From Eubacteriales bacterium (lineage in GTDB: Bacteria > Bacillota > Clostridia > Oscillospirales > CAG-272), in contig JAZQDD010000020.1 in NCBI GenBank assembly GCA_045546615.1, positions 972 through 64,971 on the forward strand: 64,000 nt of DNA, in the 5' to 3' direction. Made by a program: the position numbers and the translations under genes. This document shows, one piece after another, positions 9,514 through 60,390 of the stretch. The notes under the pieces are model-generated. The model did no database searches and had not been told where the DNA came from. It was given only the letters and a program-made list of their open reading frames with translations. Each line of letters begins with the position of its first letter. Position 1 is the first letter of the stretch.

Positions 9514-9760
9514 AAATAAAGACAGTGATGAAGCGAGTACTGTGAGTATCTTGTGTACAGAGAGCCGTGGGTGCTGAGACACGGCACAAGACTTATGGGA
9601 AAAACACTTCGGAGTCGGCGGAAGAAAGCTACGGCGAGTAGAACCGCACGTTCGTCGCGTAAAGACGCAGTTGAGTGGATCGCCCTTGGCGGTCAATTTG
9701 GGTGGTATCGCGGAAGCTTGCCTTTCGTCCCATGCGGGGCGGAAGGCTTTTTGTTTTTAA
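9514..9760 (+). promoter_or_regulatory. T-box riboswitch leader, specifier AAC (Asn)
   Basis: AGAGAG bulge and GGTGCTGAGA distal loop. T-box sequence AATTTGGGTGGTATCGCGG (9695-9713). Terminator GCCTTTCGTCCC-ATGC-GGGGCGGAAGGC plus TTTTT. AAC-A (9603-9606) sits directly before helix CTTC, which pairs with GAAG. Confidence 0.9.
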
Positions 9761-11895: not shown

Positions 11896-13071
11896 ATGAT
11901 GGAAGAAAAAAAGATCATTATTGCCGATGATATGATACTCACGGTGGGAAGCCCCACCACCGCAGGCTCAAAAATGCTTGACGGATATAACAGCTTGTTT
12001 GAGGCAGAGGTGCTTACTCGCCTTAATGCCGCAGGATATCAGCTCGGCGGCAAAGCCGACGTTGGCGAGTTCGCCATAGACCTTCTCGGCGAGACTTCAT
12101 ATAAGGGTGCTTTGGTTGCTGACGGCAAGATCAAAAATGCCGCGGCAGAGGCAATCAAGGCAAGCGATGCCGCAGCGGCAATTTGCCTTGACGTAAACGG
12201 CAGCGTCAGACGCGCCGCCGCCCAAAGCGGACTTGTCAGCCTCAAGGCTACCTACGGTACTGTTTCCCGCTACGGTACGGTTCCCGTTGCTTGCTCGGGT
12301 GAGACTGTAAGCATTCTTGCCGCAGATGCCGAGGTCTGCCGTGACGTTCTTGACGTTGTGGCAGGAAATGATAAAAAGGACGGAACGAGCCTTTCCGACG
12401 ATATCTGCGCCAAGGTCAAAAAGGGCGCGGAGTATGCTCCCGTCCGCAAGGTCGCGCTCATTTCTTCTATGATGAATGGCGCGGACGCTGACGTAAAGGA
12501 AAAGATCGACGCGGCAGTTGCCGCCATGGAGAGCAAGGGAGTTGAGGTAACTTCCGTAGATAACGGCGTTATCCCCATGGCAAGGGGCGCGTGGAACGTT
12601 CTTATGAGCGCGGAGCTTTGCAATAACGTTTCGCGTTACGACGGCGTGAAGTACGGATACCGTTCCAATACTTTTTCCAATATCGAGGAGCTTTACACCA
12701 ACAGCCGTACCGAGGCGTTCGGTGATTTGCTCAAGGCGGCAATACTCTTTGGCTCTGATACGCTCTCAAGCGAGAACTATGACGGCGTATACGATAAGTG
12801 CCTGAGAATGCGCAGAGTCATTGTTGATGAATTTTCCAAGATATTTGAAGAATTCGACGCGGTCATTATGCCGAGCTGTTCGTCCATGTCGTATGCGGCA
12901 GAGGACGTTGCGGCAAACAAATATATTTCCTTTGAGGAGAATTACTATACCGCACCTGCGTCCATTACGGGATTGCCCGCAGTAGTGGCTGGCGGCGTTC
13001 AGGTGATCGGAAGAGCTTTTTCGGAGCAGGCTTTGCTGGATTTAGCGAGAATTATTAAGGAGGGCAGATAA
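11896..13071 (+). CDS. gatA: GatA-like amidase-signature protein, short form lacking the GGSSGGS motif
   Basis: GGAGGATGGG RBS. Collinear with GatA (TTAGSKML, NGSVRRAAA, LKATYGTVSRYG, SRYDGVKYGY). Only 391 aa, and the Gly/Ser-rich loop is replaced by DGKIKNAAAEAIKAS. Confidence 0.8.
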   Translation: MMEEKKIIIADDMILTVGSPTTAGSKMLDGYNSLFEAEVLTRLNAAGYQLGGKADVGEFAIDLLGETSYKGALVADGKIKNAAAEAIKASDAAAAICLDVNGSVRRAAAQSGLVSLKATYGTVSRYGTVPVACSGETVSILAADAEVCRDVLDVVAGNDKKDGTSLSDDICAKVKKGAEYAPVRKVALISSMMNGADADVKEKIDAAVAAMESKGVEVTSVDNGVIPMARGAWNVLMSAELCNNVSRYDGVKYGYRSNTFSNIEELYTNSRTEAFGDLLKAAILFGSDTLSSENYDGVYDKCLRMRRVIVDEFSKIFEEFDAVIMPSCSSMSYAAEDVAANKYISFEENYYTAPASITGLPAVVAGGVQVIGRAFSEQALLDLARIIKEGR

Positions 13072-13072
13072 G

Positions 13073-14515
13073 ATGAGATACGAAACTGTCATAGGACTTG
13101 AGGTTCACGTTGAGCTGGCAACAAAGTCAAAGATATTTTGCTCTTGCTCCGCCCATTCTTACGGCGCTGACCCCAATACCCACGTTTGTCCCGCCTGCTG
13201 CGGAATGCCCGGAATGCTTCCCGTAGTAAACAAAAGCGTTGTTGACTACGGTATGAAGGCGGGTATGATGCTCAATTGCCATATAAACAGAGTTACAACC
13301 TTTGACAAGAAGAGCTATTATTACCCCGATCTTCCCGCCGCGTATCAAACCACGCAGTGGTTTGCTCCCGTTGCGGTAAACGGACTCGTTGAGATAAAAA
13401 CGTCAAAAGGAACAAAAAACGTCAGAATAAAGCAGATCCACATGGAAGAGGATGCAGGAAAGCTGGTTCACGACATCCGCGAGGATACGACTCACGTTGA
13501 CTTCAACCGCACGAGCGTTCCGCTTATAGAAATAGTAAGCCAGCCCGATCTGTCAAGCGCAGAGGAGGTCGAGGCTTATCTTGAAAGACTCAAGACACTG
13601 CTTCGTTATGCGAGAGTTGCGGAGTGCGAAATGGCACACGGAACTATGCGTTGCGACGTTAACCTTTCCGTACGTCCCGAGGGCAGTGACAAGCTCGGCG
13701 TTAGAACCGAGATAAAGAATATGAACTCCATAGAGGCTATAAAGCGCGCTATTGAGTATGAAACCGCAAGACATATCGACGCTATTGAGAACGGCACGGA
13801 GGTTCTCCGTCAGGAGACCAGACGCTGGGATGATATCAAGGCGAGAAGCTACGCCATGAGAACCAAGGAAACTGCGGGCGACTACCGCTATTTCCCAGAT
13901 CCCAACGTAATGCCCGTAGAGATCGACGAGGATTGGTTTGAGAATGTCAAAGCATCTCTCCCCGAATTCCCCGAGGTCAAGCTCGAGAGATATATGCGCG
14001 ATTACGGACTTAGCGAATATGACGCAACACAGCTTACCAAGAGCATTGCGCTTTGCGACTGCTTTGAGGATGCGTACCGCGTTTGCAAGTCGGCAAAGGA
14101 TGCGGCTAACTGGATGATATCCGAGGTTATGAGCATATTGAACGCCAGAAAAATGACGTATGATATGCTTGATATATGCGGAAATTCTCTCGGAAACCTG
14201 ATACTTCTCGTGTCAGAGGGTAAGGTCGGCAGAGCAAATGCCAAGAAAATACTCTTTGCCATGTTTGACGACTCATCCATCGAGCCTTACGCTTACGCCG
14301 AGGCTAACGGATATATCATTTCAAACGACGTATCCAAGATCGAGTCTGTTGTAAAAGCCGTTCTCGAGGCAGATCCCGCTTCGGTTGCTGACTATAAGGG
14401 CGGAAAAGAAAAGGCGCTTATGGCACTTTTCGGAAGATGTATGAAAGACCTCAAGGGCAACTGCGATCCGCAGACCTTGAGAGGTATTTTGATCGATCTT
14501 ATCTCCAAATCGTAA
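13073..14515 (+). CDS. gatB: aspartyl/glutamyl-tRNA amidotransferase subunit B
   Basis: 480 aa. YETVIGLEVHVELATKSKIFCSC, followed by the GatB/YqeY C-terminal region. Start is 2 nt after the gatA stop. Confidence 0.95.
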   Translation: MRYETVIGLEVHVELATKSKIFCSCSAHSYGADPNTHVCPACCGMPGMLPVVNKSVVDYGMKAGMMLNCHINRVTTFDKKSYYYPDLPAAYQTTQWFAPVAVNGLVEIKTSKGTKNVRIKQIHMEEDAGKLVHDIREDTTHVDFNRTSVPLIEIVSQPDLSSAEEVEAYLERLKTLLRYARVAECEMAHGTMRCDVNLSVRPEGSDKLGVRTEIKNMNSIEAIKRAIEYETARHIDAIENGTEVLRQETRRWDDIKARSYAMRTKETAGDYRYFPDPNVMPVEIDEDWFENVKASLPEFPEVKLERYMRDYGLSEYDATQLTKSIALCDCFEDAYRVCKSAKDAANWMISEVMSILNARKMTYDMLDICGNSLGNLILLVSEGKVGRANAKKILFAMFDDSSIEPYAYAEANGYIISNDVSKIESVVKAVLEADPASVADYKGGKEKALMALFGRCMKDLKGNCDPQTLRGILIDLISKS

Positions 14516-47669: not shown

Positions 47670-48362
47670 ATGAGCCTTGATACGTCAAGAACGGAATATA
47701 TTTTGGGCAAGGACGGTTGCCGCCGTCTTGCCGAGGCGCGCGTTCTCGTTTTCGGCGTCGGCGGTGTCGGCGGACATCTGTGCCAGGCGCTTGCCCGCGC
47801 GGGTGTCGGCGCGATAACGGTGATTGACGGTGACGACGTTGCCCCCTCGAACATAAACAGACAGATAATCGCTCTATCCACCACCGTCGGCAGAGCGAAG
47901 GTCGAGGTCGTAAAGGAGCGTATCGCCCTGATAAATCCCGAGTGCAAGGTAGAGGCGAAAAAGCTGTTTTATCTGCCCGAAAATGCGGACGAGATAGATT
48001 TTTCCGCCTATGATTTTGTTGCCGACGCGGTAGATACCGTCGCGGCAAAGGTGGATATAATCTGCCGCGCAAGCGCGGCGGGTGTCGGCGTGATATCCTC
48101 GATGGGCGCGGGAAATAAGCTGTATCCCGAGCGTTTTCGCGTGTCGGATATATACGAGACGTCCGTTTGCCCGCTGGCGCGAGTGATGCGCCGTGAGCTG
48201 AAAGCTCGCGGGATAAGCGCACTTACGGTGGTGTGGTCGGACGAGCCGCCCATAGCGCCGAAGGTTGCCGTCGAGGGACGCGCACCGGGCAGTATCTCCT
48301 TCGTTCCCGCCGCCGCGGGACTTGTCATGGCGGGCGAGATAGTGCGCAGATTGGCATTGTGA
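47670..48362 (+). CDS. tcdA: ThiF/TcdA-family tRNA threonylcarbamoyladenosine dehydratase
   Basis: Rossmann motif VFGVGGVGG, NINRQ, and a length of ~230 aa. Confidence 0.85.
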   Translation: MSLDTSRTEYILGKDGCRRLAEARVLVFGVGGVGGHLCQALARAGVGAITVIDGDDVAPSNINRQIIALSTTVGRAKVEVVKERIALINPECKVEAKKLFYLPENADEIDFSAYDFVADAVDTVAAKVDIICRASAAGVGVISSMGAGNKLYPERFRVSDIYETSVCPLARVMRRELKARGISALTVVWSDEPPIAPKVAVEGRAPGSISFVPAAAGLVMAGEIVRRLAL

Positions 48363-48400
48363 TTTTTTTTCGGGGGTTTTGAAAATTTTTTCAAAACCCC

Positions 48401-48429
48401 TTGACAAAGCAAACTCACTGTGTTAAAAT
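48401..48429 (+). promoter_or_regulatory. promoter of the Leu T-box leader
   Basis: TTGACA-N17-TAAAAT, directly after the tcdA terminator hairpin (GGGGTTTTGAAAA/TTTTCAAAACCCC). Confidence 0.7.
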
Positions 48430-48435
48430 GACTTT

Positions 48436-48700
48436 GTAAATTTCAAAAATCAAACGCAATGACGGAAAATGTGTATGTGAAAAGCGTTTCAGAGAGCCGA
48501 CGGCAGCTGTGAGTCGGTACGCGGTCACGATGCACTCTCATTCCCGAGTGGGACATTTGAAAGGGTGTCACGGATGCCACCGTTACAGGGCAGGGAGCTG
48601 TTAGGCTCTTGTAAAGGAGGTCGCGTAAGCGGCAATTTGGGTGGTACCGCGGTTTTTATCGTCCCTGAAGCAATGGCTTCGGGGGTTTTTTGTTTTTTAC
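48436..48700 (+). promoter_or_regulatory. T-box riboswitch leader, specifier CUC (Leu)
   Basis: AGAGAG bulge and GCAGCTGTGAG distal loop. T-box sequence AATTTGGGTGGTACCGCGG (48634-48652). Terminator CCCTGAAGC-AATG-GCTTCGGGG plus T-run. CTC-A (48537-48540) sits directly before helix TTCC, which pairs with GGAA. Confidence 0.9.
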
Positions 48701-48744
48701 GGCAATCCCACAAAATCAAAATTTTTTCAAGAGAGGTTCTAACT

Positions 48745-50157
48745 ATGAACGCAAACGCAAGAAGGATCAGAATATCGGACGCAACCATCCGCACGGGTGC
48801 GGGGGGCTATACCTTTAAGGAAAAGCTCGAGGTGCTTCGTATGCTTGGCAGGATAGGGGCTGACATCATCGAGCTTGGCTCTATCAGCGAGACGGAGGCA
48901 AAGAGCGATGCGCTTCTTTACCGCACCGCAAGCGCGATCCTTGACGATTGCACGCTTTCCCTCACCGTGAGTGCAGATAAGGCGGGTATAGATGCGGCTT
49001 GGGCTGCCATCGGCGGCGCAACAAGCCCGAGACTTTCCGTAGCTCTCCCCGTTTCCACCGTTCAGGCTGAATACATATATCATAAAAAGCCCGAGGCGAT
49101 GATCGCCGTCATCAGCGACACGGTATCATACGCCAAGAGTCTTGGCGCAGAGGTCGAATTCCGTGCGCTTGACTCAACAAGATGCGAGCTTGACTATCTT
49201 ATTACTGCCGCAAAGACTGCGGCGGAAGCGGGCGCGTCGGTAATTACCGTTTGCGACACATCGGGCGAGTCTCTCCCCGATGAGATAGCCGCCATCGTTT
49301 CATCTCTTCGCGCCGCGCTTGACGGTGTCAGCATCGGCGTTGAATGCTCCGATGCCATGGGACTTGCAAACGCCGCCGCCCTTGCCGCCATCGCGGCGGG
49401 AGCTGACGAGGTCAGCACCGTATTCTGCCGCGGCGGAGTATCCGTTTGCGACCTTGCCGCCGCCCTTGCGATAAAGGGTGATGCGATGGGCGTAACGCTT
49501 CGCATCGACACCACAAAGCTCTCCAGCACCGCCGACAGAGTTTCCCACCTTTCGGGCGACCGTCACGGCAAGAGCGTAAAGAGCGTAGTTTCCGCCTACG
49601 AGGATAGGGAGATCCCCACCGATGCCGATATTATAACGGTTGGTGAGGCTGCCGCCGCCATCGGATACAGCCTGACCGAGGACGACAGAGCAAAGGTATA
49701 CGAGTCTCTTCGCCGCCTCGGTGAAAAGACGGGCAGAAAGAGTATTACCGCACGTGAGCTTGACGCGATCGTTGCCGCCGATGCTTTGCAGGTGCCCCCC
49801 ACCTACCACCTTGTTTCTTACCTTATAAACAGCGGTAATACCATCAGCGCCACCGCGCAGATCACCCTTGACAAGAACGGTGAGATGATGACGGGACTTT
49901 GCGCGGGTGACGGCCCTATTGACGCCGCTTTCCGTGCTATCGAGCAGATACTCGGTTACCGCTACGAGCTTGACGATTTCCGCATCAGCTCCGTTACCGA
50001 GGGCAAGGGTGCGATGGGTGATGCGCTCGTCCGTCTGCGCTACGACGGTAAGCTCTATTCGGGAAGGGGACTTTCCACCGACATTATCGGCGCTTCCATC
50101 AGAGCCTACGTCAGCGCGCTGAACAAGATAGTATACGAACAGAACAACTCAAAATAA
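48745..50157 (+). CDS. 2-isopropylmalate/citramalate synthase-like protein with degenerate catalytic motifs (probable pseudoenzyme) and intact LeuA C-terminal regulatory domain
   Basis: GAGAGG RBS before ATG 48745 (the longer ORF from 48565 overlaps the T-box). Collinear with LeuA, but DTTLRDGEQ is DATIRTGAGG and HxH-NDLG is ECSDAMG. The C-terminus GDGPIDAAFRAIEQI...GRGLSTDIIGASIRAYVSALNK is conserved. Confidence 0.8.
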   Translation: MNANARRIRISDATIRTGAGGYTFKEKLEVLRMLGRIGADIIELGSISETEAKSDALLYRTASAILDDCTLSLTVSADKAGIDAAWAAIGGATSPRLSVALPVSTVQAEYIYHKKPEAMIAVISDTVSYAKSLGAEVEFRALDSTRCELDYLITAAKTAAEAGASVITVCDTSGESLPDEIAAIVSSLRAALDGVSIGVECSDAMGLANAAALAAIAAGADEVSTVFCRGGVSVCDLAAALAIKGDAMGVTLRIDTTKLSSTADRVSHLSGDRHGKSVKSVVSAYEDREIPTDADIITVGEAAAAIGYSLTEDDRAKVYESLRRLGEKTGRKSITARELDAIVAADALQVPPTYHLVSYLINSGNTISATAQITLDKNGEMMTGLCAGDGPIDAAFRAIEQILGYRYELDDFRISSVTEGKGAMGDALVRLRYDGKLYSGRGLSTDIIGASIRAYVSALNKIVYEQNNSK

Positions 50158-50175
50158 TAAAAGGAATTATCCAAA

Positions 50176-52707
50176 ATGAAACTTTCACTTTCCACAAACG
50201 GTTGGGAATCCTACGGCTGGGGTAAGCTCTTTGACGCGTTTCGTGATGCGGGCATCGAGGGTATCGAGCTTCACGGCATAGCTTCTCCCGAGCTTTCGGG
50301 CGCGGGCAAGCCCTTTTCCACCGAAAATATAAAGACCACCGCGCGCAGATTTTCAAACGTCGGAGTCACCGTTACCTGTGTTGATTCTCTCTCGGACATC
50401 TCTCTTACCGATCCCGACGCGATAGATGCGGCGATATATGAGATAGAGGAGTGCATTGCCGCCGCGCGTGACCTGCGTTGCAGATTTGTAAGGATCCACG
50501 CGTTTGGTGAGGATAAGGGCGAGACTACCGACGCCGCCGTGCGCCGTATGATAATGCGCCTGCTGCCCACCTCGGTAAATATGGGCGTTACGCTTCTTGT
50601 TGAGACCGCTGGCATCTACGCCGATACCGCGCGTCTTTGCGAGCTTCTCAATTCCTTTGCATCCGACAACGTTGGCGCACTTTGGGATATGCACCATCCG
50701 TACAGATATTGCGGCGAGGACCCCGAGCTTACCATACAGCGTCTCGGCGCGTACGTCAAGCACGTCCACATCCGCGATTCCGTAAAGAACGCCTCGGGCG
50801 ATGCGGACTTCTGCCTGATGGGTGACGGCGACCTTCCCGTTGCGGAAATGCTTGACGCGCTTGATTCCGTCGGCTACGGCGGATACATCAGCTACGAGTG
50901 CGCGCAGGGCGTTATCGAGGAGTTCGGTGCGGCGGAGATAGTTCTGCCTCATTTTGTAAGTTATATGCAAAAATTCGGCAAAAGCCAGCCGTCGATGTCA
51001 CGCCTGCCCGAAAACCGTTCAAGAACGGGACGTTTCGTTTGGCAGAAAAACGAGCTTATCGACCTCACCTTCCCGCAGGTGCTTGACAAAATGGTTGAGG
51101 AATTTCCCGACCAGCTCGCGTTCAAGTACACCACGCTCGATTACACCCGCACCTACTCGCAATTCCGTGACGACGTTGACAGCTTTGCACGCGCCCTCAT
51201 CGCTATGGGTGTTGGTGTTGGCGATCACGTTGCTATCTGGGCGACCAACGTCCCCGCGTGGTTTATCACCTTCTGGGCGGCTACCAAGATAGGCGCGGTG
51301 CTTGTTACCGTAAATACCGCGTACAAGATACATGAGGCGGAATATCTTTTCCGTCAGTCCGATACACACACGCTCGTTATGGTGGAGAGCTGCCGTGATT
51401 CCGATTACCGCGCCATCATCAACGAGATTTGCCCCGAGATCGCCTCGACTCCCTCGGGTCAGCCGCTTCATTGCAAACGGCTTCCGTTTTTGCGCAACGT
51501 CGTTACCGTCGGTTTTTCGATGGCGGGCGGCGTGACGCTTGAGGATGCTATACGAATGGGCGAGAGCGTTCCCGCCGAGGAAGTATCAAGGCGTGCCGCC
51601 GCAGTCCGTCCCGACGACGTGGCGAATATGCAGTACACCTCGGGAACTACGGGCTTCCCCAAGGGCGTTATGCTCACTCACCGCAATATAGTAAATAACG
51701 GCAAATGTATAGGCGACAGAATGGACCTTTCCACCGCCGACCGTATGATGATACAAGTGCCGATGTTCCATTGCTTCGGAATGGTGCTGTCAATGACGTC
51801 GTCAATGACGCACGGCGCAACGCTCCTTCCCATGCCGTATTTCAGCCCCAAATCCTCGCTTGCGTGCGTTCAGGCAGAGCGCATAACCGTATTTAACGGC
51901 GTTCCCACCATGTTTATCGCTATGCAGTCGCATCCCGACTTTGCAAAGACTGATTTTTCGTCCGTCCGTACGGGCATCATGGCAGGCTCTAACTGCCCTG
52001 CCGACCTTATGCTCAGCGCAACAAAGACGATGAATATGACCGAGATCATAAGCGTCTACGGTCAGACCGAGGCATCCCCCGGCTGTACTATGAGCTGTGT
52101 TGACGATCCGCTCGAGGCGCGTGTAGGCACTGTTGGTCACGCCTTCCCGAACGTTGAGTGCAAGATAATCGATCCCGAAACGGGACTTGATCTGCCCGAC
52201 GGCGAGAACGGTGAGTTCGTTGCGCGCGGATATAACATAATGAAGGGCTATTACAAGATGCCCCGCGCAACGCGTGAGGCAATTGATAGCGACGGCTGGC
52301 TTCATACGGGTGACATCGCCTGCCGCGATGCTGACGGAAACTATCGCATCACCGGCAGACTCAAGGATATGATAATCCGCGGCGGAGAGAATATCTACCC
52401 CCGCGAACTTGAGGAATTCCTCTTTACGCACCCCAAGGTCAGCGATGTTCAGGTCGTAGGCGTTCCCGACAAGAGATACGGCGAGGAATGTATGGCTTGG
52501 GTAATTCCGAAGGACGGCGAAACTCTCACCGCTGAGGAACTTCGCGAGTATTCGCTGGAGCGCATGGCTCGCCATAAAGTGCCGAGATACATCCATATCT
52601 GCTCGACCTTCCCGATGAACGATGCGGGCAAGATACTCAAATACAAGATGCGCGAGTGGGGTGCCGAGATGATAGCAGACCCAGAAAATCCCCTCTCCAA
52701 GCAGTAA
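50176..52707 (+). CDS. fusion protein: xylose-isomerase-like TIM barrel (N-terminal) plus AMP-dependent acyl-CoA ligase (C-terminal)
   Basis: 843 aa. The first ~280 aa look like a sugar-phosphate isomerase/epimerase fold (GIEGIELHG, LLVETAG, HVHIRD). The remainder has MQYTSGTTGFPKGVMLTH, YGQTE, LHTGD, GRLKDMIIRGGENIYP. Confidence 0.85.
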   Translation: MKLSLSTNGWESYGWGKLFDAFRDAGIEGIELHGIASPELSGAGKPFSTENIKTTARRFSNVGVTVTCVDSLSDISLTDPDAIDAAIYEIEECIAAARDLRCRFVRIHAFGEDKGETTDAAVRRMIMRLLPTSVNMGVTLLVETAGIYADTARLCELLNSFASDNVGALWDMHHPYRYCGEDPELTIQRLGAYVKHVHIRDSVKNASGDADFCLMGDGDLPVAEMLDALDSVGYGGYISYECAQGVIEEFGAAEIVLPHFVSYMQKFGKSQPSMSRLPENRSRTGRFVWQKNELIDLTFPQVLDKMVEEFPDQLAFKYTTLDYTRTYSQFRDDVDSFARALIAMGVGVGDHVAIWATNVPAWFITFWAATKIGAVLVTVNTAYKIHEAEYLFRQSDTHTLVMVESCRDSDYRAIINEICPEIASTPSGQPLHCKRLPFLRNVVTVGFSMAGGVTLEDAIRMGESVPAEEVSRRAAAVRPDDVANMQYTSGTTGFPKGVMLTHRNIVNNGKCIGDRMDLSTADRMMIQVPMFHCFGMVLSMTSSMTHGATLLPMPYFSPKSSLACVQAERITVFNGVPTMFIAMQSHPDFAKTDFSSVRTGIMAGSNCPADLMLSATKTMNMTEIISVYGQTEASPGCTMSCVDDPLEARVGTVGHAFPNVECKIIDPETGLDLPDGENGEFVARGYNIMKGYYKMPRATREAIDSDGWLHTGDIACRDADGNYRITGRLKDMIIRGGENIYPRELEEFLFTHPKVSDVQVVGVPDKRYGEECMAWVIPKDGETLTAEELREYSLERMARHKVPRYIHICSTFPMNDAGKILKYKMREWGAEMIADPENPLSKQ

Positions 52708-52790
52708 TATTTGTAAATTCAAAAAATATAGTGCATTTTGCGCTGTAATGTGATATAATTGACTTAACCTAAAACTTAAGGAGAAAAACT

Positions 52791-53855
52791 ATGGAAATCA
52801 AGATTACAAGAACTACAACCCCCAAGGCAAAGCCCGCAAAAGGTCAGGCTCTCGGCTTTGGCAAGATATTTACCGACCACATGTTTATGATGAATTACAC
52901 CGAGGGCAAGGGCTGGCACGATGCCAGAATCGAGCCTTTCCACAATATCGAGCTTTCCCCTGCCTGCGTGGTATTCCACTACGGTCAGGAGATGTTCGAG
53001 GGACTCAAGGCTTATCGCGGAGTTGACGGCAAGGTTCGCCTTTTCCGCCCCGAGATGAACGCCCGCCGTACCAACGCTTCGAACAAGCGTCTTTGCATCC
53101 CCGAGCTTCCCGAGGATATGTTCGTAGAGGCTGTTCGCGCAGTCGTTGACGTTGATGCGGATTGGATACCCACCGACGACGGCACTTCGCTCTACATCCG
53201 CCCCTTCATCATCGGTACTGATGAATTCCTCGGCGTTGCCCCCTCAAAGACCTACCTTTTCTGCGTAATTCTTTCTCCCTCGGGAGCATACTACGCTGAC
53301 GGACTCAAGCCCGTCGGCATTTGGATCGAGGACGATTACGTAAGAGCCGTTCGCGGCGGTATGGGCTTTGCAAAGACGGGCGGTAACTACGCTTGCTCCC
53401 TCGCGGCTCAGGTAAAGGCGCATGACGACGGATATTCTCAGGTACTTTGGCTTGACGGCGTTGAGAGAAAGTACATTGAGGAAGTTGGCGCGATGAACAT
53501 CTTCTTCAAGATCGGCGGCAAGGTAGTAACTCCCATGCTCAACGGCTCTATCCTCCCCGGTATCACCCGTGACAGCGTTCTTACGCTCTGCCGCGCGTGG
53601 GGACTTGACGTTGAGGAGCGCAAGATCTCCGTTGACGAGCTTATCGAGGCTCAAAAGAACGGTACGCTCGAGGAAGTTTTCGGAACGGGTACTGCCGCAG
53701 TTATCTCTCCCGTCGGCAAGCTCCGCTACGTTGACGAGGTAATGACCATCGGTGACGGCTCTATCGGCCCGCTCAGCCAGAAGCTCTATGATACCGTAAC
53801 GGGTATCCAGTGGGGCAAGGTAGAGGACACCATGGGCTGGACACAGACCGTCTGA
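52791..53855 (+). CDS. ilvE: branched-chain amino acid aminotransferase
   Basis: AAGGAG RBS. 354 aa. Contains FEGLKAYR, a class IV aminotransferase pattern, GGNYA, EVGAMNIFF, PGITR. Confidence 0.93.
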   Translation: MEIKITRTTTPKAKPAKGQALGFGKIFTDHMFMMNYTEGKGWHDARIEPFHNIELSPACVVFHYGQEMFEGLKAYRGVDGKVRLFRPEMNARRTNASNKRLCIPELPEDMFVEAVRAVVDVDADWIPTDDGTSLYIRPFIIGTDEFLGVAPSKTYLFCVILSPSGAYYADGLKPVGIWIEDDYVRAVRGGMGFAKTGGNYACSLAAQVKAHDDGYSQVLWLDGVERKYIEEVGAMNIFFKIGGKVVTPMLNGSILPGITRDSVLTLCRAWGLDVEERKISVDELIEAQKNGTLEEVFGTGTAAVISPVGKLRYVDEVMTIGDGSIGPLSQKLYDTVTGIQWGKVEDTMGWTQTV

Positions 53856-53856
53856 T

Positions 53857-54573
53857 ATGGAGTCGATCCTTAACAGAAACGCCAGAGTCACGCTTTTTGC
53901 GGGACACTACGGAAGCGGAAAAAGCACGGCGGCAATAGCGTTTGCCGCCGCGCTCCGCGCCAAATTTCCGCACGAAAGGCTGACTCTTGCAGACCTTGAT
54001 ATAGTAAATCCGTATTTCCGTACGACCGACTGTGCCGAGCTGCTTCGCTCGCTTGGTGTGGAGGTGGTCGCATCGGATTTTGCAGGTACTAACGTCGACG
54101 TTCCCGCCCTGCCGGGCGCGGCGTACTCGCTTATTGAAAGGCGAGACGTACGCTCAATTATCGACGTCGGCGGTGATGACCGCGGCGCACTTGCGCTCGG
54201 ACGTTACGTTCCCGCCCTCAAGGAGGAGGGAAGCTACGATATGCTTGCCGTTATCAATCCCTACCGTCCGCTGACAAGAAATGCCGCGGACACCGCAGAG
54301 GTGCTTCGCGAGATAGAGGCGGCGTGCGGCTTGGCTTTTACGGCGATACTTAACAATCCCGCCCTCGGTGTTAACACCACCGCTGACAGCGTGGTGTCGG
54401 CAACGCCCTACGCGCTTGCCGTCAGTGAGGCTATGGGCATTCCCGTGGCGTTCACCATGGCGCGCGAGGATCTGTGCGGCGAGCTTGCGACGAGAAGCGC
54501 AGAGCTGCCCGCAGACGGGCTTTTGCTGCCGTTTGCCCATAAAATCGCCCACGGCGGCATAGTTAACGGATAA
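53857..54573 (+). CDS. P-loop NTPase of unknown function (MinD/CooC-like SIMIBI type)
   Basis: Start is 2 nt after the ilvE stop. Walker A-like FAGHYGSGKST and a Walker B-like IIDVGGDD. Confidence 0.65.
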   Translation: MESILNRNARVTLFAGHYGSGKSTAAIAFAAALRAKFPHERLTLADLDIVNPYFRTTDCAELLRSLGVEVVASDFAGTNVDVPALPGAAYSLIERRDVRSIIDVGGDDRGALALGRYVPALKEEGSYDMLAVINPYRPLTRNAADTAEVLREIEAACGLAFTAILNNPALGVNTTADSVVSATPYALAVSEAMGIPVAFTMAREDLCGELATRSAELPADGLLLPFAHKIAHGGIVNG

Positions 54574-54580
54574 AATTGTA

Positions 54581-54609
54581 AAAAAACGGCTTTATAGAGC
54601 CGTTTTTTT
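54581..54609 (+). terminator. rho-independent terminator
   Basis: AAAAAACGGCT-TTATAG-AGCCGTTTTTTT. Confidence 0.85.
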
Positions 54610-54691
54610 GCAAAAAACTGTTGAACTAACGGGAATTATAATATATAATAATATAATAAGTTAAATTTTACATACCGAAAGGGAAATAAAA

Positions 54692-54901
54692 ATGGTAAAA
54701 ATCAGCTTCAGAACCGACAGATGTAAGGGCTGCGGGCTTTGCGTTACCGCCTGCCCCAAAAAGCTGCTCGCTATGGACAGCGAGAAGATAAACGCGCAGG
54801 GCCATCACCCTGCCACCATCACCGACGCATCCGCTTGCATAGGCTGTGCTTCATGCGCACTTATCTGCCCCGATTGCGTCATTACGATCATCAAGGAATA
54901 A
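54692..54901 (+). CDS. 2-oxoacid:ferredoxin oxidoreductase delta subunit (2x[4Fe-4S] ferredoxin)
   Basis: 69 aa. CKGCGLCVTACP and CIGCASCALICP. Confidence 0.9.
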   Translation: MVKISFRTDRCKGCGLCVTACPKKLLAMDSEKINAQGHHPATITDASACIGCASCALICPDCVITIIKE

Positions 54902-54913
54902 AGGAGAGAGAAA

Positions 54914-55975
54914 ATGGCAGAAAAGGTACTTATGAAAGGTAACGAGGCTATTGCCGAGGCTGCTATCGCCGCAGGCTGCCGCCATTATTTCGGTTACCCC
55001 ATCACCCCCCAGACAGAAATTGCCGCATATATGGCAAAGCGTATGCCCAAGATAGGCGGCGTTTTCCTTCAGGCTGAAAGCGAAGTTTCCGCTGTTAATA
55101 TGGTCATCGGTGCGGCTTCCGCAGGCGTGCGCGTTATGACCTCGTCCTCCTCCCCCGGAATATCCCTTAAGAGCGAGGGACTTTCCTACATGGCAGGATG
55201 CGACCTGCCCGCACTCATCGTCAACGTTCAGCGCGGCGGCCCGGGTCTTGGCGGTATCCAGCCCTCCCAGTCCGACTATTTCCAAGCTACCCGCGGCGGC
55301 GGACACGGTGACTATCACATGCTCGTTCTCGCTCCCGACTCCGTGCAGGAAATGGCTCAAATGACCATTCAGGGCTTTGCCCTTGCTGAGAAATACCGTA
55401 TGCCCTGTATGCTTTTGGCAGACGGTACTATGGGACAGATGATGGAGCCCGTTGAGCTTCCCGACACCGCACCCGAAATGGTGGAGAAGCCTTGGGCGCT
55501 CACGGGTACGGGACTTTCTCGCAAGCACAATATCATAAACTCCCTCTCTCTTACTCCGGACGAGCTTGAGAGATGGAATATCGACAGATACGCAAGATAT
55601 GCAAAGGTCGAGGCTGACGAGGTAATGTACGAGGAGTATCTTACCGAGGATGCCGACGTTTGCGTAGTTGGCTACGGCATCGCCGCAAGAGTTGCGCGTA
55701 ACGCCGTTAACGCCGCACGCGCCAAGGGCATCAAGGCAGGAATGTTCCGCCCCATCACCCTCTGGCCCTTCCCCAAGGCAGCACTTAACAAGCTCGCAAC
55801 CACCTGCCGTGCGTTCATTTCCGTTGAGCTTTCCATGGGACAGCTTATCGAGGATGTTGAGCTTGCTATCCGTTGCAGCCGCCCCGTAACTCTTTGCAAC
55901 CGTACGGGCGGTATGATCCCCTCACCCGAGCAGGTGCTTGCCTCTATCGAGGAAGCCGCCGCAAAACTTAATTAA
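54914..55975 (+). CDS. 2-oxoacid:ferredoxin oxidoreductase alpha subunit
   Basis: GGAGAG RBS. 353 aa. MKGNEAIAEAAIAAGCRHYFGYPITPQTEI. Confidence 0.9.
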   Translation: MAEKVLMKGNEAIAEAAIAAGCRHYFGYPITPQTEIAAYMAKRMPKIGGVFLQAESEVSAVNMVIGAASAGVRVMTSSSSPGISLKSEGLSYMAGCDLPALIVNVQRGGPGLGGIQPSQSDYFQATRGGGHGDYHMLVLAPDSVQEMAQMTIQGFALAEKYRMPCMLLADGTMGQMMEPVELPDTAPEMVEKPWALTGTGLSRKHNIINSLSLTPDELERWNIDRYARYAKVEADEVMYEEYLTEDADVCVVGYGIAARVARNAVNAARAKGIKAGMFRPITLWPFPKAALNKLATTCRAFISVELSMGQLIEDVELAIRCSRPVTLCNRTGGMIPSPEQVLASIEEAAAKLN

Positions 55976-55989
55976 GGAGGATGCTGAAA

Positions 55990-56739
55990 ATGGCAGTTGT
56001 ATTTGAAAGACCTCACTCCCTTGTTGACGTGCCGATGCACTATTGCCCCGGTTGCGGTCACGGTATAATTCACCGCCTTGTTGCAGAGGCTATCGACAGC
56101 CTCGGTATCGAGGGTAAGACCATTGGCGTTGCCTCGGTTGGTTGCTCGGTATTTTCCTATAATTATTTCAACACCGACATGGTTCAGGCGGCTCACGGAC
56201 GCGCTCCCGCCGTTGCTACGGGCGTAAAGCGTGCTAACCCCGAGAACATCGTTTTCACCTATCAGGGTGACGGCGACCTTGCCGCTATCGGTACTGCGGA
56301 GACTGTTCACGCCGCCGCAAGAGGTGAGAACATCACCATTATCTTTGTAAACAACGCAATTTACGGTATGACGGGCGGTCAGATGGCTCCCACCTCTCTC
56401 CCCGGTCAGATCACGCAGACCTCGCCCTACGGACGTGACGTTAACACCGTCGGATACCCCGTAAAGGTCAGCGAGATGCTTTCCCAGCTTGACGGCGCGG
56501 CTTATATCGAGCGCGTTGCTATCAACAACACAAAGAACATTCGCGCCGCCGCAAAGGCTATCAAAAAGGCGTTTACTTATCAGACCGAGGGCAAGGGTTT
56601 TACTCTTATCGAGGTAGTTTCCACCTGCCCGACCAACTGGGGACTTACTCCCGAAAAGTCTATGGCATGGCTTGAGGAGAATATGCTTCCTTACTATCCT
56701 CTCGGCGTATACAAGGATAAGTACGCCGACAAAAACTGA
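55990..56739 (+). CDS. 2-oxoacid:ferredoxin oxidoreductase beta subunit (TPP-binding)
   Basis: AAGGAGG-N9-ATG at 55990 (the ATG at 55981 abuts the RBS). Contains CPGCGHG, GDGD, NNAIYGMTGGQ. Confidence 0.9.
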   Translation: MAVVFERPHSLVDVPMHYCPGCGHGIIHRLVAEAIDSLGIEGKTIGVASVGCSVFSYNYFNTDMVQAAHGRAPAVATGVKRANPENIVFTYQGDGDLAAIGTAETVHAAARGENITIIFVNNAIYGMTGGQMAPTSLPGQITQTSPYGRDVNTVGYPVKVSEMLSQLDGAAYIERVAINNTKNIRAAAKAIKKAFTYQTEGKGFTLIEVVSTCPTNWGLTPEKSMAWLEENMLPYYPLGVYKDKYADKN

Positions 56740-56754
56740 TAGGGGGTATTGACT

Positions 56755-57291
56755 ATGACAAAGAATATTCTTATTGCCGGCTTTGGTGGACAGGGCGTGC
56801 TTTTCACTGGTAAATTTATCGCTTACGGTGCGCTTATCGAGGGCAAGGAGCTTAGCTGGCTTCCTTCCTACGGCCCTGAAATGCGCGGCGGAACTTGCAA
56901 TTGCTCCGTTATCGTCAGCGACGAGCCCGTAGGCTCTCCCATTGTTAACGAGCCTGATGTGCTTATTGCTATGAACCGCCCCTCGCTTGATAAATTTGAG
57001 GACTCTGTTGTTCCCGGCGGTGATATTTATATCGACTCCTCCCTTGTTGACAGAGAGGTACGCCGTACCGACGTAAACGTTCATTATATTCCCGCTACCC
57101 GCCTTTCCACCGAGCGCGGCTTTGACGGTATCGCCAATATGATACTGCTTGGAAGCGTTATCAAGGGAAGCGGCGTTATCAAGGAGGAGACTATCCCCGC
57201 GGCTATGTCGAAGGTAGTTTCCGCAAAGCGTCAGAATCTTTTTGATTTCAATATCCGCGCACTGCAGCTTGGCGCGGAAGTGCTTAAATAA
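56755..57291 (+). CDS. 2-oxoacid:ferredoxin oxidoreductase gamma subunit
   Basis: [32 protein letters not shown]. Confidence 0.9.
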
Positions 57292-57301
57292 TAGGTGTAG
57301 T

Positions 57302-57865
57302 ATGGCTAAAACACATTCCGAAGAGCTTCGTGAGATAGCCGCACGCCTTCAGGATATGCGCGAGATATGCGAGATATCCGAGGAGGAAATGGCGCAAAAG
57401 CTTGGCGAAACGCTCGCAGACTATCAGTCCTACGAGCGCGGCGAAAGAGATTTTCAGATCAGCTTTCTCTGCGAGGCGGCAAACGTTCTCGGTATTGACG
57501 TGCTTGATCTTATGAGCGGTACGTCGCCAACTCTTTCAGTTTGCACCGTTGTTAAAAAAGGTCAGGGCTTTAACGTTGACCGTAACAACGCGTATAAATA
57601 TAAGCACCTTGCGTTCCCCTTCCGCAACAAAAAGGCAGAGCCCTTCCTTGTTACCGTTGAGCCTAACGATTCCATCCCCGCCCTCAACTCCCACCCCGGT
57701 CAGGAATTTGACTATATGGTGTCGGGTGCGATGAAGCTCTTTATAGGTGAGGAAGAATATCTTCTTGAGGCGGGAGACAGCGCGTATTTTGACTCTTCCA
57801 CACCCCACGCGCTCAAAGCCGTGGGCGACACTGCCGCAGAGTTTTTGGCAATAGTTATCAAGTAA
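57302..57865 (+). CDS. XRE HTH plus cupin-domain transcriptional regulator
   Basis: ATG 57302 follows the gamma-subunit stop. The HTH is in the first 70 aa. C-terminal cupin motifs HPGQEFDYMVSG...YFDSSTPHA. Confidence 0.85.
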   Translation: MAKTHSEELREIAARLQDMREICEISEEEMAQKLGETLADYQSYERGERDFQISFLCEAANVLGIDVLDLMSGTSPTLSVCTVVKKGQGFNVDRNNAYKYKHLAFPFRNKKAEPFLVTVEPNDSIPALNSHPGQEFDYMVSGAMKLFIGEEEYLLEAGDSAYFDSSTPHALKAVGDTAAEFLAIVIK

Positions 57866-57874
57866 GGACGTAAA

Positions 57875-59569
57875 ATGGCTATTTATGAAAAATATCTGGG
57901 GCGCTCAAGGGACAGCTTTTCCTCGCTGAAGGATGCGCAGGAGAACTTGAAGTTCAGTTGCCCAGATGACTTTAATTTCGCGTATGACGTTATAGACGAG
58001 CTTGGCAGAACCAAACCCGACAAAACGGCTATGGTCTGGGTATCAAAGAATTGGGAGGAGAAGATAATAAGCTTCTCCGAGCTTTCGCGTGAGTCCGACC
58101 GTGCCGCCGCGTTTCTTTACGGACTCGGCATTCGTCGCGGCGACAGAGTGCTTCTCGTTCTCAAGCGCCATTACTATTTCTGGTATCTGCTCCTCGGACT
58201 TCACAAGATAGGTGCGGTTGAGGTACACGCTACGTCCATGCTCACGGCAAAGGACTATGTTTACCGCTGTAACGCCGCAAAGGTCAAGGCGGTCATAGTC
58301 TCCTGCGACGATGGCTGTACCGAGCATTTTGACGGCGGTATGGGCAAGTATGAAACTGTCGAACACCGGTTCGTTATCGGCGGCAACGCACCCGACGGCT
58401 GGCGTGATTTCAACGCCGAGTTCGAATCAACCCCCGCCGAATGGAAAAAGCCCGACTACCTTGCGGATTTCTCTGCCGACGAGACGATGATGCTCTGCTT
58501 CTCGTCGGGAACTACGGGATATCCAAAGCTCATTTCCCACGATTACCGCTACCCCCTCGGTCATATTATGACGGGTGTTTTCTGGCATCGCTGTGTTGAC
58601 GGCGGACTCCATCTGTCCGTGTCCGACACGGGCTGGATGAAGGCTTTCTGGGGTAAGATGTACGGTCAGTGGTTTGCCGAAAGCGCGATAATGGTCTATG
58701 ATTTTGACCGCTTTAACGGAGACGATATACTTAAAATAGTGGAAAAATACAAGGTCACCACCTTCTGTGTTCCCCCCACTATGTACCGCATGATACTGCT
58801 CAAGGACGTTGAAAAGTACGACCTTTCATCCATCGTGCATTGTTGCACGGCGGGTGAGGCACTCGGCCCTGAAATTTATAACGAATGGCTCACGCGCACG
58901 GGACACAAGATATACGAGGGCTTCGGACAGAGCGAAACTCCCGTTATTATTGCCTCGCTCGCGCCGTATACCGAGCCTGTACCGGGTGCGGCGGGACTTC
59001 CCGTTCCGGGTTATGACGTTCAGATAGTGGACGAGGACTGCAATCCCTGTCCGCGCGGTGTAAACGGCGAGATATGCGTTCGTGTGGACAGCATGGCGAC
59101 TCGCCCATACGGTCTGCTTTCGAGCTATAATTTCAACGAGGAGGAGACTGCAAACGCCTACCGCGACGGCTTCTATCACACGGGAGACATTGCCTACCGC
59201 GATGAAAAGGGTATGTTCCGCTACGTTGGACGTAACGATGATATAATCAAATCATCGGGTTACCGTATAGGCCCGTTCGAGATAGAGTCGGTAATGATCG
59301 AGCACCCCGCGGTGCTGGAGGTTGCGGTTACGGGCGTTCCCGACGCTCTGCGCGGCTTCCTTGTTAAGGCAACGGTCGTTCTGCGCGAGGGATATACACC
59401 CTCTGACGAGCTTGTAAAGGAGCTTCAGAACTATGTTAAGGCCAACACAGCACCGTACAAGTACCCTCGCATTATCGAGTTTGTCGATGCGCTTCCCAAG
59501 ACCTTCAGCGGAAAGATACGCCGTACGGAGATACGTCAGCGTGATGCTGAAAAGTATGCTAATAAATAA
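57875..59569 (+). CDS. medium-chain-type AMP-forming acyl-CoA synthetase
   Basis: 564 aa. FSSGTTGYPK, GFGQSET, YHTGD, GRNDDIIKSSGYRIGPFEIES, and a C-terminal SGKIRR. Confidence 0.9.
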   Translation: MAIYEKYLGRSRDSFSSLKDAQENLKFSCPDDFNFAYDVIDELGRTKPDKTAMVWVSKNWEEKIISFSELSRESDRAAAFLYGLGIRRGDRVLLVLKRHYYFWYLLLGLHKIGAVEVHATSMLTAKDYVYRCNAAKVKAVIVSCDDGCTEHFDGGMGKYETVEHRFVIGGNAPDGWRDFNAEFESTPAEWKKPDYLADFSADETMMLCFSSGTTGYPKLISHDYRYPLGHIMTGVFWHRCVDGGLHLSVSDTGWMKAFWGKMYGQWFAESAIMVYDFDRFNGDDILKIVEKYKVTTFCVPPTMYRMILLKDVEKYDLSSIVHCCTAGEALGPEIYNEWLTRTGHKIYEGFGQSETPVIIASLAPYTEPVPGAAGLPVPGYDVQIVDEDCNPCPRGVNGEICVRVDSMATRPYGLLSSYNFNEEETANAYRDGFYHTGDIAYRDEKGMFRYVGRNDDIIKSSGYRIGPFEIESVMIEHPAVLEVAVTGVPDALRGFLVKATVVLREGYTPSDELVKELQNYVKANTAPYKYPRIIEFVDALPKTFSGKIRRTEIRQRDAEKYANK

Positions 59570-59572
59570 AAT

Positions 59573-59602
59573 AAGGGGTAGAAACGCGAGTTTCTACCCC
59601 TT
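59573..59602. terminator. bidirectional terminator
   Basis: AAGGGGTAGAAAC-GCGAG-TTTCTACCCCTT between convergent genes. Confidence 0.85.
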
Positions 59603-59619
59603 ATTTTATACTTGGAGAT

Positions 59620-60390
59620 TTAAAAAACTATTCTCTCGACCTTTGTGCATCCTTTTCCCGCGGCGACCTCAAAAAGCACGGCGTTGGCGCGCACCTTGCC
59701 GCGCGCGGCGCGAAAACGCGCGGGCATAGCCGTTAGAAATTGCGCCATGATCGGCTCTGCCGCCGCGCCGAGGATGCTGTCCTCAACGCCCGTCATTCCG
59801 ACGTCGGTGATGTATCCGCTGCCGTTTGGCAATATGCGCTCGTCAGCGGTAGGAACGTGTGTGTGCGTTCCGAAAATAACGTCCACTCTGCCGTCAAGAT
59901 AACGGCCCATGGCTTGCTTTTCCGAGGTTGCCTCGGCGTGAAAATCAAGCACGGCTACGTCATACTTGCCACTCTCGCGGCGCAGAATAGCATCTGCGGC
60001 GGAAAATGGCGAGGCGAGCGCGACCTTCATCGACACGTTGCCTTGCAGATTCATAACAAGCACGCGCTGTCCTGCCGCGTTAATTATCACACTTCCGTGT
60101 CCGGGTGCGCCGCCTGGGAAATTATCGGGGCGCAAAAGGCGTTTTTCATCGTCAAGGGCGGAGTAGCAATCGCGTTGGCCAAAGGCGTGATTCCCCGTCG
60201 TTATCACGTCCGCGCCCGCATCAAAAAGAGCCGAAACGTCATCTCGGGAGATGCCCTTGATATCGGCGGCGTTTTCGCCGTTCACTATTGTCAGATCTAC
60301 GCCGAGGGCGTTTATTTTTTTTCGTAATTCTTTTCGCAAAAAGCTCACGGCATCCGCGCCGACAACGTCGCCAACAGCTAATATTCTCAT
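59620..60390 (-). CDS. ymdB: YmdB-family metallophosphoesterase (2',3'-cyclic-nucleotide phosphodiesterase)
   Basis: MRILAVGDVVG, NGENAA, TGNH, DFHAEATSEK, GTHTHVPT. Confidence 0.9.
   Translation of the reverse strand: MRILAVGDVVGADAVSFLRKELRKKINALGVDLTIVNGENAADIKGISRDDVSALFDAGADVITTGNHAFGQRDCYSALDDEKRLLRPDNFPGGAPGHGSVIINAAGQRVLVMNLQGNVSMKVALASPFSAADAILRRESGKYDVAVLDFHAEATSEKQAMGRYLDGRVDVIFGTHTHVPTADERILPNGSGYITDVGMTGVEDSILGAAAEPIMAQFLTAMPARFRAARGKVRANAVLFEVAAGKGCTKVERIVF

Follow-up and report, generated by a model that had tools for sequence, protein, structure and literature searches.

Labelling of rumen bacteria has traced a route to branched-chain amino acids in which a branched short-chain acid is converted to its coenzyme A (CoA) ester, the ester to a 2-oxoacid, and the 2-oxoacid to the amino acid. 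Many rumen and gut Clostridia rely on the branched short-chain fatty acids of their neighbours for these amino acids, and Allison and co-workers reportedly found, in the 1960s, that rumen ruminococci form leucine by carboxylating isovalerate. To our knowledge, no gene has been assigned to the activating enzyme of the leucine-from-isovalerate route in rumen and gut Clostridia, and our literature searches returned none for a branched-acid activating enzyme of these bacteria. A system with the same physiological logic as that proposed below is MbcS, an AMP-forming ligase with which a Firmicute can draw on branched short-chain acids from outside, bypassing de novo 2-oxoacid routes; the Staphylococcus aureus enzyme prefers 2-methylbutyrate and isobutyrate and is poor on isovalerate (PMC10026030). 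Here, we describe a gene for an 843-amino-acid (aa) protein in which an N-terminal TIM barrel is fused to an acyl-CoA ligase, found in a 64,000-nucleotide stretch of DNA (the window, which is the whole stretch analysed) from contig JAZQDD010000020.1 of a Eubacteriales bacterium (GCA_045546615.1). With a probability of roughly 40%, we read the fusion as a leucine-starvation-induced ligase that activates isovalerate or isobutyrate for conversion to leucine via the 2-oxoacid:ferredoxin oxidoreductase VOR and the aminotransferase IlvE, with the LeuA-like protein encoded just upstream acting as a leucine-sensing partner.

The gene and its parts are as follows:

50176–52707, + strand: 843-aa fusion protein, ATG start, no internal stops
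50230–50904, + strand: N-terminal xylose-isomerase-like TIM barrel (Pfam, aa 19–243; fold, aa 1 to ~265)
50971–51045, + strand: inter-domain linker, ~aa 266–290, of low conservation and with pLDDT below 50–60
51088–52254, + strand: AMP-binding (ANL) adenylation domain, aa 305–693 (Pfam; best NCBIfam family NF009233, PRK12583)
52405–52632, + strand: AMP-binding C-terminal domain, aa 744–819 (Pfam), with the invariant A10 lysine K819

Pfam assigns AP_endonuc_2 (PF01261; 93.3 bits against a cut-off of 31.1, 2.6e-26), AMP-binding (PF00501; 311.4 bits against 29.9, 1e-92), and AMP-binding_C (PF13193; 61.2 bits against 24.5, 1.8e-16) to these segments, with the N-terminal domain covering positions 1–230 of the 249 in its profile. 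A first-pass annotation of the window had described a single 843-aa open reading frame (ORF) with no stop or frameshift at the junction, and both a check of the ORF and its relatives agree; the complete C-terminal AMP-binding ligase that it recognized is likewise there, with all four motifs that it quoted, and the domain search that it suggested places both AP_endonuc_2 and AMP-binding above their cut-offs. Its ~280-residue barrel is a TIM barrel by Pfam and by fold, although the domain ends nearer aa 265 and is followed by the variable, low-confidence linker, with the ligase starting at about aa 291. The intergenic gap from the stop of the LeuA-like gene (which ends at 50157) to the ATG of the fusion (50176) had been given as 19 nt and measures 18 nt.

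The best 120 clusters from a protein search, which are 61 to 100% identical to the window protein, all contain both the barrel and the AMP-binding domain, and 119 of them exceed 800 aa in length (P0072, with 724 aa, is a partial record without AMP-binding_C). A scan of one genome per species returned at least 597 confirmed matches; in the best 80 of these, residues 1 to at least 821 align in a single frame by tblastn. The junction, thus, stays in one frame throughout 80 independent genomes and 120 protein clusters, and because the same architecture recurs in one frame across clusters and genomes, a sequencing artefact is ruled out: that the fusion is a real single protein is close to certain. 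The rival view, that a missed stop or frameshift has joined two separate genes, could appeal to one "split" homologue (P0130), but on that contig the neighbouring LeuA-like gene is also in pieces, which indicates assembly indels, and we treat this view as excluded.

The ligase half displays the full set of ANL core motifs: A3 (TSGTTGFPKG, aa 488–497), A5 (YGQTE, aa 628–632), A7 (HTGD, aa 710–713), and the A8 region (aa 727–742, GRLKDMIIRGGENIYP, with GGENIYP at 736–742). These motifs and K819 are invariant in 32 homologues, and the half as a whole averages 74% identity to the window protein over 118 homologues. Its best NCBIfam family is PRK12583 (NF009233), a fatty acid CoA ligase family, which matches essentially end to end (679.8 bits, aa 291–834 on model positions 12–555 of 558); all other NCBIfam families score below 435 bits. 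The curated cut-off of NF009233 is 832 bits, so that it is the closest family to the fusion, which is not a member of it by the NCBI criterion. The fusion further departs from PRK12583 in its ~265-aa N-terminal barrel, which is absent from the family model, and in its leucine T-box control. The solved structures closest to the ligase half are generic fatty-acyl, feruloyl, and 4-coumarate ligases. In the full-length structural model (pTM 0.43), the ligase half is poorly modelled, and the packing of the domains is not readable from it; the first-pass annotation had suggested that the coupled domains may channel a modified acid, a conjecture on which this model is silent.

The strongest clue to function, and one absent from the first-pass annotation, is the leader of the operon, in which the following elements precede the fusion:

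48401–48429, + strand: sigma-70-type promoter (TTGACA, 17-nt spacer, TAAAAT, TG extension; 11 of 12 consensus positions)
48450–48669, + strand: T-box leader RNA (Rfam RF00230), specifier CUC (Leu) followed by A, bulge UGGU
48661–48696, + strand: intrinsic terminator of the T-box (hairpin and T run), with an 11-bp stem at 48661–48686 and then TTTTTTGTTTT
48745–50157, + strand: LeuA-like protein, 470 aa, with a degenerate HMGL-like barrel and a well-conserved LeuA_dimer domain

The leader matches the whole Rfam model (positions 1–219) at 104.9 bits against a gathering score of 93; its T-box sequence is GGGUGGUACCGCG, its specifier codon was taken from the alignment to the Rfam consensus, and the terminator overlaps the 3′ end of the match. 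The promoter, 21 nt upstream of the leader, is the best site within 48300–60000. At least 44 related loci also have a T-box motif just 5′ of the LeuA-like gene. Among the 43 parsable leaders that precede a LeuA-like–fusion pair in related loci, the specifier is CUC in 36 and CUG in 7, and, thus, encodes leucine in every case; all 45 leaders scored at the variable position of the T-box bulge have U there, which fits an A discriminator base. Solitary fusions have such leaders as well: the one in L077, which lacks a LeuA-like neighbour, carries a T-box (97.9 bits in Rfam) with a CUC specifier, and those in L050 and L054 carry T-boxes whose CUC specifiers were read by eye. As the neighbours of these three are unrelated to the fusion system and the fusions bring their own leucine T-boxes, the fusion is tied to leucine supply on its own account. 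Counting the window with the 81 related loci, leucine T-box control is evident in at least 48 of 82, and is, therefore, common, not universal; as a finding, it is close to certain.

In T-box leaders, read-through of the terminator requires the uncharged cognate tRNA. By this established mechanism, the operon is expected to be on when tRNA-Leu is uncharged and, therefore, to serve leucine supply. The leader in the window shares its architecture and its CUC specifier with the leucine T-box regulons of Firmicutes, of which leuS and the ilv-leu operon of Bacillus subtilis are examples. We know of no T-box regulon that includes an acyl-CoA ligase or a xylose-isomerase-like barrel, and literature searches found none.

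The LeuA-like gene lies directly 5′ of the fusion in 74 of 81 loci, where its stop usually abuts or overlaps the fusion start. We place its own start in the window at the ATG at 48745, behind an AGAGAGG ribosome-binding site, because the T-box leader occupies 48450–48669 and, thus, overlaps the start of the longest ORF (GTG at 48565); the resulting length of 470 aa agrees with that of homologues. Annotation of the longest ORF, by running through T-box and terminator (48565–48744), would add 60 spurious residues. The protein has the two-domain layout of 2-isopropylmalate synthase (LeuA), with matches to HMGL-like (1.4e-29) and LeuA_dimer (7.2e-32, 110.5 bits, profile positions 2–130 of 131), and it resembles LeuA also in belonging to a leucine-controlled operon. 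To this extent the "LeuA-like" label that it received at first is apt, but it is no ordinary LeuA. It misses all LeuA and CimA cut-offs in NCBIfam (the best score being 263.6 against 532), and when aligned in clear register with two solved isopropylmalate synthases, its LRDGEQ motif reads IRTGAG, the glutamate of PEDATR is replaced (LDSTR in the window), and the HCH metal ligands read ECS. Across 70 LeuA-like homologues (loci L001–L081), the columns of the catalytic Arg, Asp, Glu, and two His residues are variable. The barrel is the least conserved part of the protein (35% mean identity; 13% of its columns reach 90% conservation), and the regulatory domain, which bears the conserved motif GDGPIDA...ELDDFQIQSVTEG...STDII, is the most conserved (67% and 42%, respectively), a pattern opposite to that which we would expect of a working synthase.

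Judged by these alignments, the upstream protein is a LeuA paralogue that has lost its catalytic residues and kept its regulatory domain, making it a candidate pseudoenzyme or leucine sensor, and we infer that it may act as a non-catalytic, leucine-binding partner of the fusion. A PDB search with the regulatory domain alone gave only a spurious match to PPR repeats. Re-citrate synthase was also entertained as an identity for this gene and dropped, given the leucine specificity of the T-box and the missing catalytic residues; the candidate Re-citrate synthase gene of C. thermocellum adjoins an aconitase gene (PMC6115520).

Downstream of the fusion, the window continues with two sets of genes:

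52791–53855, + strand: IlvE, branched-chain amino acid aminotransferase (NF009897, 502 bits against a cut-off of 307)
53857–54573, + strand: P-loop protein, 238 aa, Walker A motif GHYGSGKST, the last gene before the terminator-like hairpin
54580–54609, strand not assigned: palindromic hairpin between an A run and a T run, reported by the scan on the minus strand
54692–57291, + strand: VOR operon (ferredoxin, VorB, VorA, VorC), with its own promoter at 54621–54649
57875–59569, + strand: second, unfused AMP-forming acyl-CoA ligase (Pfam AMP-binding, 8e-62), which closes the VOR operon

A scan of the + strand between the fusion and IlvE (52707–52791) found no terminator-like site, and IlvE is probably in the same transcript as the fusion. 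The hairpin at 54580–54609 is likely to be the end of the T-box operon, its action on the + strand being read from its symmetry; the T-box transcript, thus, appears to comprise the LeuA-like gene, the fusion, IlvE, and the P-loop gene. The promoter of the VOR operon serves ferredoxin, VorB (which matches NF005507 at 532.7 bits against a cut-off of 399), VorA, VorC, a helix-turn-helix (HTH)-cupin gene, and the second ligase. Within 10 kb of the fusion, VorB is present in 39 and IlvE in 35 of 81 loci, and IlvE lies directly 3′ of the fusion in 16. The recurrence of the fusion beside ilvE and VOR genes, which had been put forward for survey, is, thus, borne out in about half of the loci. De novo clustering of ORFs over 82 loci yields only the LeuA-like, IlvE, P-loop, VorB/A/C, Amidohydro_2, HTH-cupin, and second-ligase genes as conserved neighbours; it returned no leuB, leuC, or leuD, and no conserved dehydrogenase or CoA-transferase, near the fusion.

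Taken with the leader, this neighbourhood suggests a scheme in which uncharged tRNA-Leu would allow read-through of the T-box and transcription of the operon; the ligase half would convert a branched short-chain acid of gut or rumen origin to its CoA ester, VOR would reductively carboxylate the ester to a 2-oxoacid, and IlvE would transaminate the 2-oxoacid towards leucine. Isovalerate would lead directly to 2-oxoisocaproate and then to leucine, and isobutyrate would lead to 2-oxoisovalerate, from which the normal leucine pathway would be needed. The LeuA-like protein, as a non-catalytic partner that binds leucine, would add allosteric feedback on top of T-box control, and the barrel may act on the same acid or on a precursor as a metal-dependent catalyst of the isomerase, epimerase, or dehydratase type. 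The second ligase bears on the choice of acid. Its best curated family is MbcS (NF047394), at 394.4 bits and below the cut-off of 850, which makes it a relative only; it follows the VOR genes in about 20 loci. MbcS is, thus, the best match of this second ligase rather than of the fusion, from which it differs in belonging to another ANL branch, in having a single domain, in feeding fatty acid synthesis, and in its poor use of isovalerate. If the second ligase acts like MbcS, the fusion could be the isovalerate-specific enzyme of the two, by an analogy that is weak because the relationship to MbcS is distant.

The barrel half is the faster-evolving part of the fusion (46% mean identity, against 74% for the ligase half), and yet seven of its residues (E31, E143, D171, H196, H198, D201, and E241) are invariant in 32 sequences, and four of these (E143, D171, H198, and E241) are at least 95% conserved in 119. 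Three of the four, D171, H198, and E241, match, in alignments, the Asp, His, and Glu conserved in the structures 3wqo and 3u0h, and E143 would be the first Glu of the metal tetrad, to judge from its position in the motif; the barrel, thus, appears to keep a predicted Glu-Asp-His-Glu metal site. Both halves, then, retain their catalytic signatures at the level of sequence: the putative tetrad in the barrel, and motifs A3, A5, A7, and A8 and the A10 lysine in the ligase. An AF2 model of the barrel alone (pLDDT 89, pTM 0.87) shows the strand-helix alternation of a (beta/alpha)8 fold, and Foldseek matches it with a probability of 1.00 to structures of the family (TM scores of 0.69 to 0.81 at 14 to 20% identity), including IolI (0.81), AsbF (3dx5, 0.78), UlaE (0.78), and ketose 3-epimerases (~0.75). 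Epimerases, isomerases, dehydratases, and one hydratase score alike, which confirms the superfamily and favours no single reaction. On model and motifs, the barrel is very probably a metal-dependent catalyst, of a reaction that the fold does not tell.

Fold and Glu-Asp-His-Glu site are common to the barrel and the PF01261 enzymes (ketose 3-epimerases, IolI, UlaE, and hydroxypyruvate isomerase); it is set apart from them by its low identity, by a gene context unrelated to sugars, and by the NCBIfam equivalogs that it misses, namely fructoselysine 3-epimerase (35.6 against 305), hydroxypyruvate isomerase (26 against 353), IolO (25.6 against 300), and IolE (19.9 against 290). A parallel in organization is offered by AsbF and AsbC of the petrobactin pathway of Bacillus anthracis. 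AsbF, one of the structures that the barrel matches best, is a TIM-barrel 3-dehydroshikimate dehydratase, and the carboxylic acid that it forms is then adenylated by the ANL enzyme AsbC. In contrast with the fusion, these are separate proteins that work on an aromatic substrate in a siderophore pathway; AsbF is 17% identical to the barrel, and there is no sign of shikimate chemistry around the fusion.

Several findings weigh against the leucine-salvage reading. The VOR operon of the window has its own promoter, without a T-box, and in about half of the loci the 10-kb flanks lack VOR and IlvE. Rfam finds no T-box at its gathering score in L006, L007, L014, L024, L037, L059, and L060 (for L006, relaxing the threshold to E ≤ 1 gave nothing either), and inspection of L046 by eye revealed no T-box motif. 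For leucine binding by the LeuA-like protein, and for its contact with the fusion, there is only domain homology and gene coupling to go by. On the side of the ligase, the NF009233 cut-off is missed, that family comes without a defined substrate, and the poor pLDDT of this half in the full-length model leaves the acyl pocket unreadable. Finally, leucine salvage has no necessary role for the barrel. The conserved metal site argues that the barrel has a role nonetheless, and this is the main gap in the model.

If the barrel were non-catalytic, serving in oligomerization or in docking of the LeuA-like protein and leaving the ligase as the sole enzyme, its rapid evolution relative to the ligase would be accounted for, as would the absence of any barrel reaction from the salvage scheme; the invariance of the four canonical metal/catalytic residues and of E31, H196, and D201 is hard to square with this, and the same motifs are kept in a related family of stand-alone barrels, so that we think a scaffold rather improbable. 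Alternatively, the degenerate LeuA paralogue and the fusion might form one leucine-feedback-controlled complex that carries out the committed steps of an undescribed leucine route, with the barrel catalysing a step on the acid or on its CoA ester; we consider this possible, if unlikely. Were it true, the allosteric module of a biosynthetic enzyme would have been recycled as the sensor subunit of an unrelated enzyme. A further scheme gives the barrel a defined place: the fusion would act directly on what the LeuA-like protein makes or binds, its ligase forming the CoA thioester of 2-isopropylmalate or of a related alkylmalate and its barrel dehydrating or isomerizing that ester, with the Amidohydro_2 protein encoded in 24 loci as a possible hydratase, to yield a CoA-dependent bypass of LeuCD that has no iron-sulfur cluster. 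The tight and apparently translational coupling of the LeuA-like gene to the fusion in 74 of 81 loci, the dehydratases and hydratases in the barrel superfamily (AsbF; the AtHYD hydratase), and the Amidohydro_2 gene directly downstream of the fusion speak for such a bypass, with which leucine T-box control is also compatible. Yet the conserved Arg, Asp, Glu, and His/His that alkylmalate synthesis requires are missing from the LeuA-like protein, ATP would be wasted in re-activating a thioester that LeuA hydrolyses, the fusion stands alone with its leucine T-box in L077, L050, and L054, and no dehydrogenase or CoA-transferase is conserved nearby; in view of these points, the scheme is improbable.

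The coupling of the two genes would also suit a re-tooled LeuA-like enzyme that the ligase supplies with an acyl-CoA other than acetyl-CoA, for example, isovaleryl-CoA to be condensed with glyoxylate to 3-isopropylmalate. The EC list has entries for alkylmalate synthases that take longer acyl-CoAs, and some conserved patches are kept in the LeuA-like barrel. That barrel is, however, the least conserved part of the protein, and its metal ligands and 2-oxoacid-binding Arg are variable, with no new conserved set in their stead, which leaves this condensation very improbable. The direction of the pathway could, in principle, be reversed, such that the three enzymes (IlvE, VOR, and the ligase) break down branched-chain amino acids or process the acids that arise from them: VOR and IlvE are reversible, and VOR is usually annotated as oxidative. 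Against a catabolic role, a T-box switches genes on at uncharged tRNA, opposite to what a leucine-degrading operon needs, and AMP-forming ligases run towards the CoA ester; we give this role hardly any credence. Of the explanations considered, the salvage of a branched acid into leucine is the one that we prefer.

On that reading, branched-acid-dependent leucine synthesis has a concrete candidate in the fusion family, which is regulated by leucine and present in many species. The cultured carriers of this family, Neobittarella massiliensis and Anaerobacterium chartisolvens, make the question directly testable. Three features, if confirmed, would also be of wider interest: an acyl-CoA ligase inside a T-box regulon, a pseudoenzyme of LeuA descent with only the regulatory domain preserved, and a conserved metal barrel without an assigned reaction. 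Confirmation would also correct the current annotations of the fusion ("AMP-binding protein" or "fatty-acyl-CoA synthase" in databases) and the LeuA/IPMS-type annotation of the upstream gene.

Most carriers of the fusion among the best 80 species genomes are uncultured Oscillospiraceae, Acutalibacteraceae, "Ruminococcus," and other Eubacteriales, from the guts of human, goat, deer, buffalo, and chicken hosts; further carriers are N. massiliensis, A. chartisolvens DSM 27016, and a Dehalobacter chromosome. In one locus, L002 (95% identity), the genes follow each other as they do in the window, from which we take the source of the window to be an uncultured bacterium of the Eubacteriales from the gut. 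The fusion had at first been called unusual; it is rather a widespread family that is already in public databases, where it is present but unnamed, and both of its domains come from well-known superfamilies. The first-pass annotation knew of no characterized example, and full-text literature searches likewise found no description of the fusion architecture, of its leucine T-box control, or of its pairing with a degenerate LeuA; nor did they find a paper on PRK12583 or on LeuA_dimer-only proteins.

The recurrence of the system as adjacent split genes, also raised at first, did not hold up. A search for the N-domain only gave 21 matches, all short, and no genuine split version, the candidates being a frameshifted contig or contig-end fragments: P0130 was rejected as a natural split gene for its indel-ridden contig, and P0126 was rejected as cut by the end of its contig. 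A profile search of 1.84 billion representatives returned 387 proteins below 1e-30, including a large family of complete barrels of ~265 to 272 aa that have the same motifs as the N-domain and are widespread in Clostridia, Caldicellulosiruptor included. The closest unfused relatives of the N-domain are stand-alone barrels of ~268 aa (P0180, P0386, and their relatives; loci L084, L086, and L088). Beside the three stand-alone barrels checked (in Caldicellulosiruptor and two other Clostridia), there is no ligase or LeuA-like gene; they are solitary, with unrelated neighbours. The barrel domain of the fusion was probably recruited from this uncharacterized family. Several stand-alone barrels are labelled "fatty-acyl-CoA synthase" by JGI, probably by annotation transfer from the fusion.

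The remaining conserved neighbours include the P-loop protein, which matches no Pfam or NCBIfam family. In 41 of 81 loci, its gene is found no more than 10 kb from the fusion, most often just 5′ of the ferredoxin/VOR genes, and the protein could be an accessory or maturation factor of VOR. In the window, the second ligase is preceded by the HTH-cupin gene (57242–57865), which is regulator-like and recurs in 11 related loci. The Amidohydro_2 gene (PF04909, 4e-31, ~267 aa), which does not occur in the window, lies directly 3′ of the fusion in 24 of 77 loci (L020, L024, L027, L029, L030, and others; e.g., L020:12484–13290).

Some leaders depart from the arrangement in the window. In N. massiliensis (L001:8100–8620), two tandem T-box antiterminator/terminator modules precede the LeuA-like gene, with the T-box sequence at both 8348 and 8471. 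In Anaerobacterium and Dehalobacter (L037:9050–10001 and L060:9456–9998), a solitary fusion follows a leader of 540 to 950 nt that contains a terminator-like hairpin; without an Rfam T-box, these leaders may use another mechanism. Elsewhere in the window, a second T-box leader (9516–9735, 118 bits) lies 5′ of an aspartyl/asparaginyl-tRNA synthetase-type gene (9805–11580), with GatA- and GatB-like genes (11896–14515) also downstream of it, and positions 2803–2876 match the Rfam Gut-1 RNA (RF01706) at 64.2 bits against a gathering score of 50.

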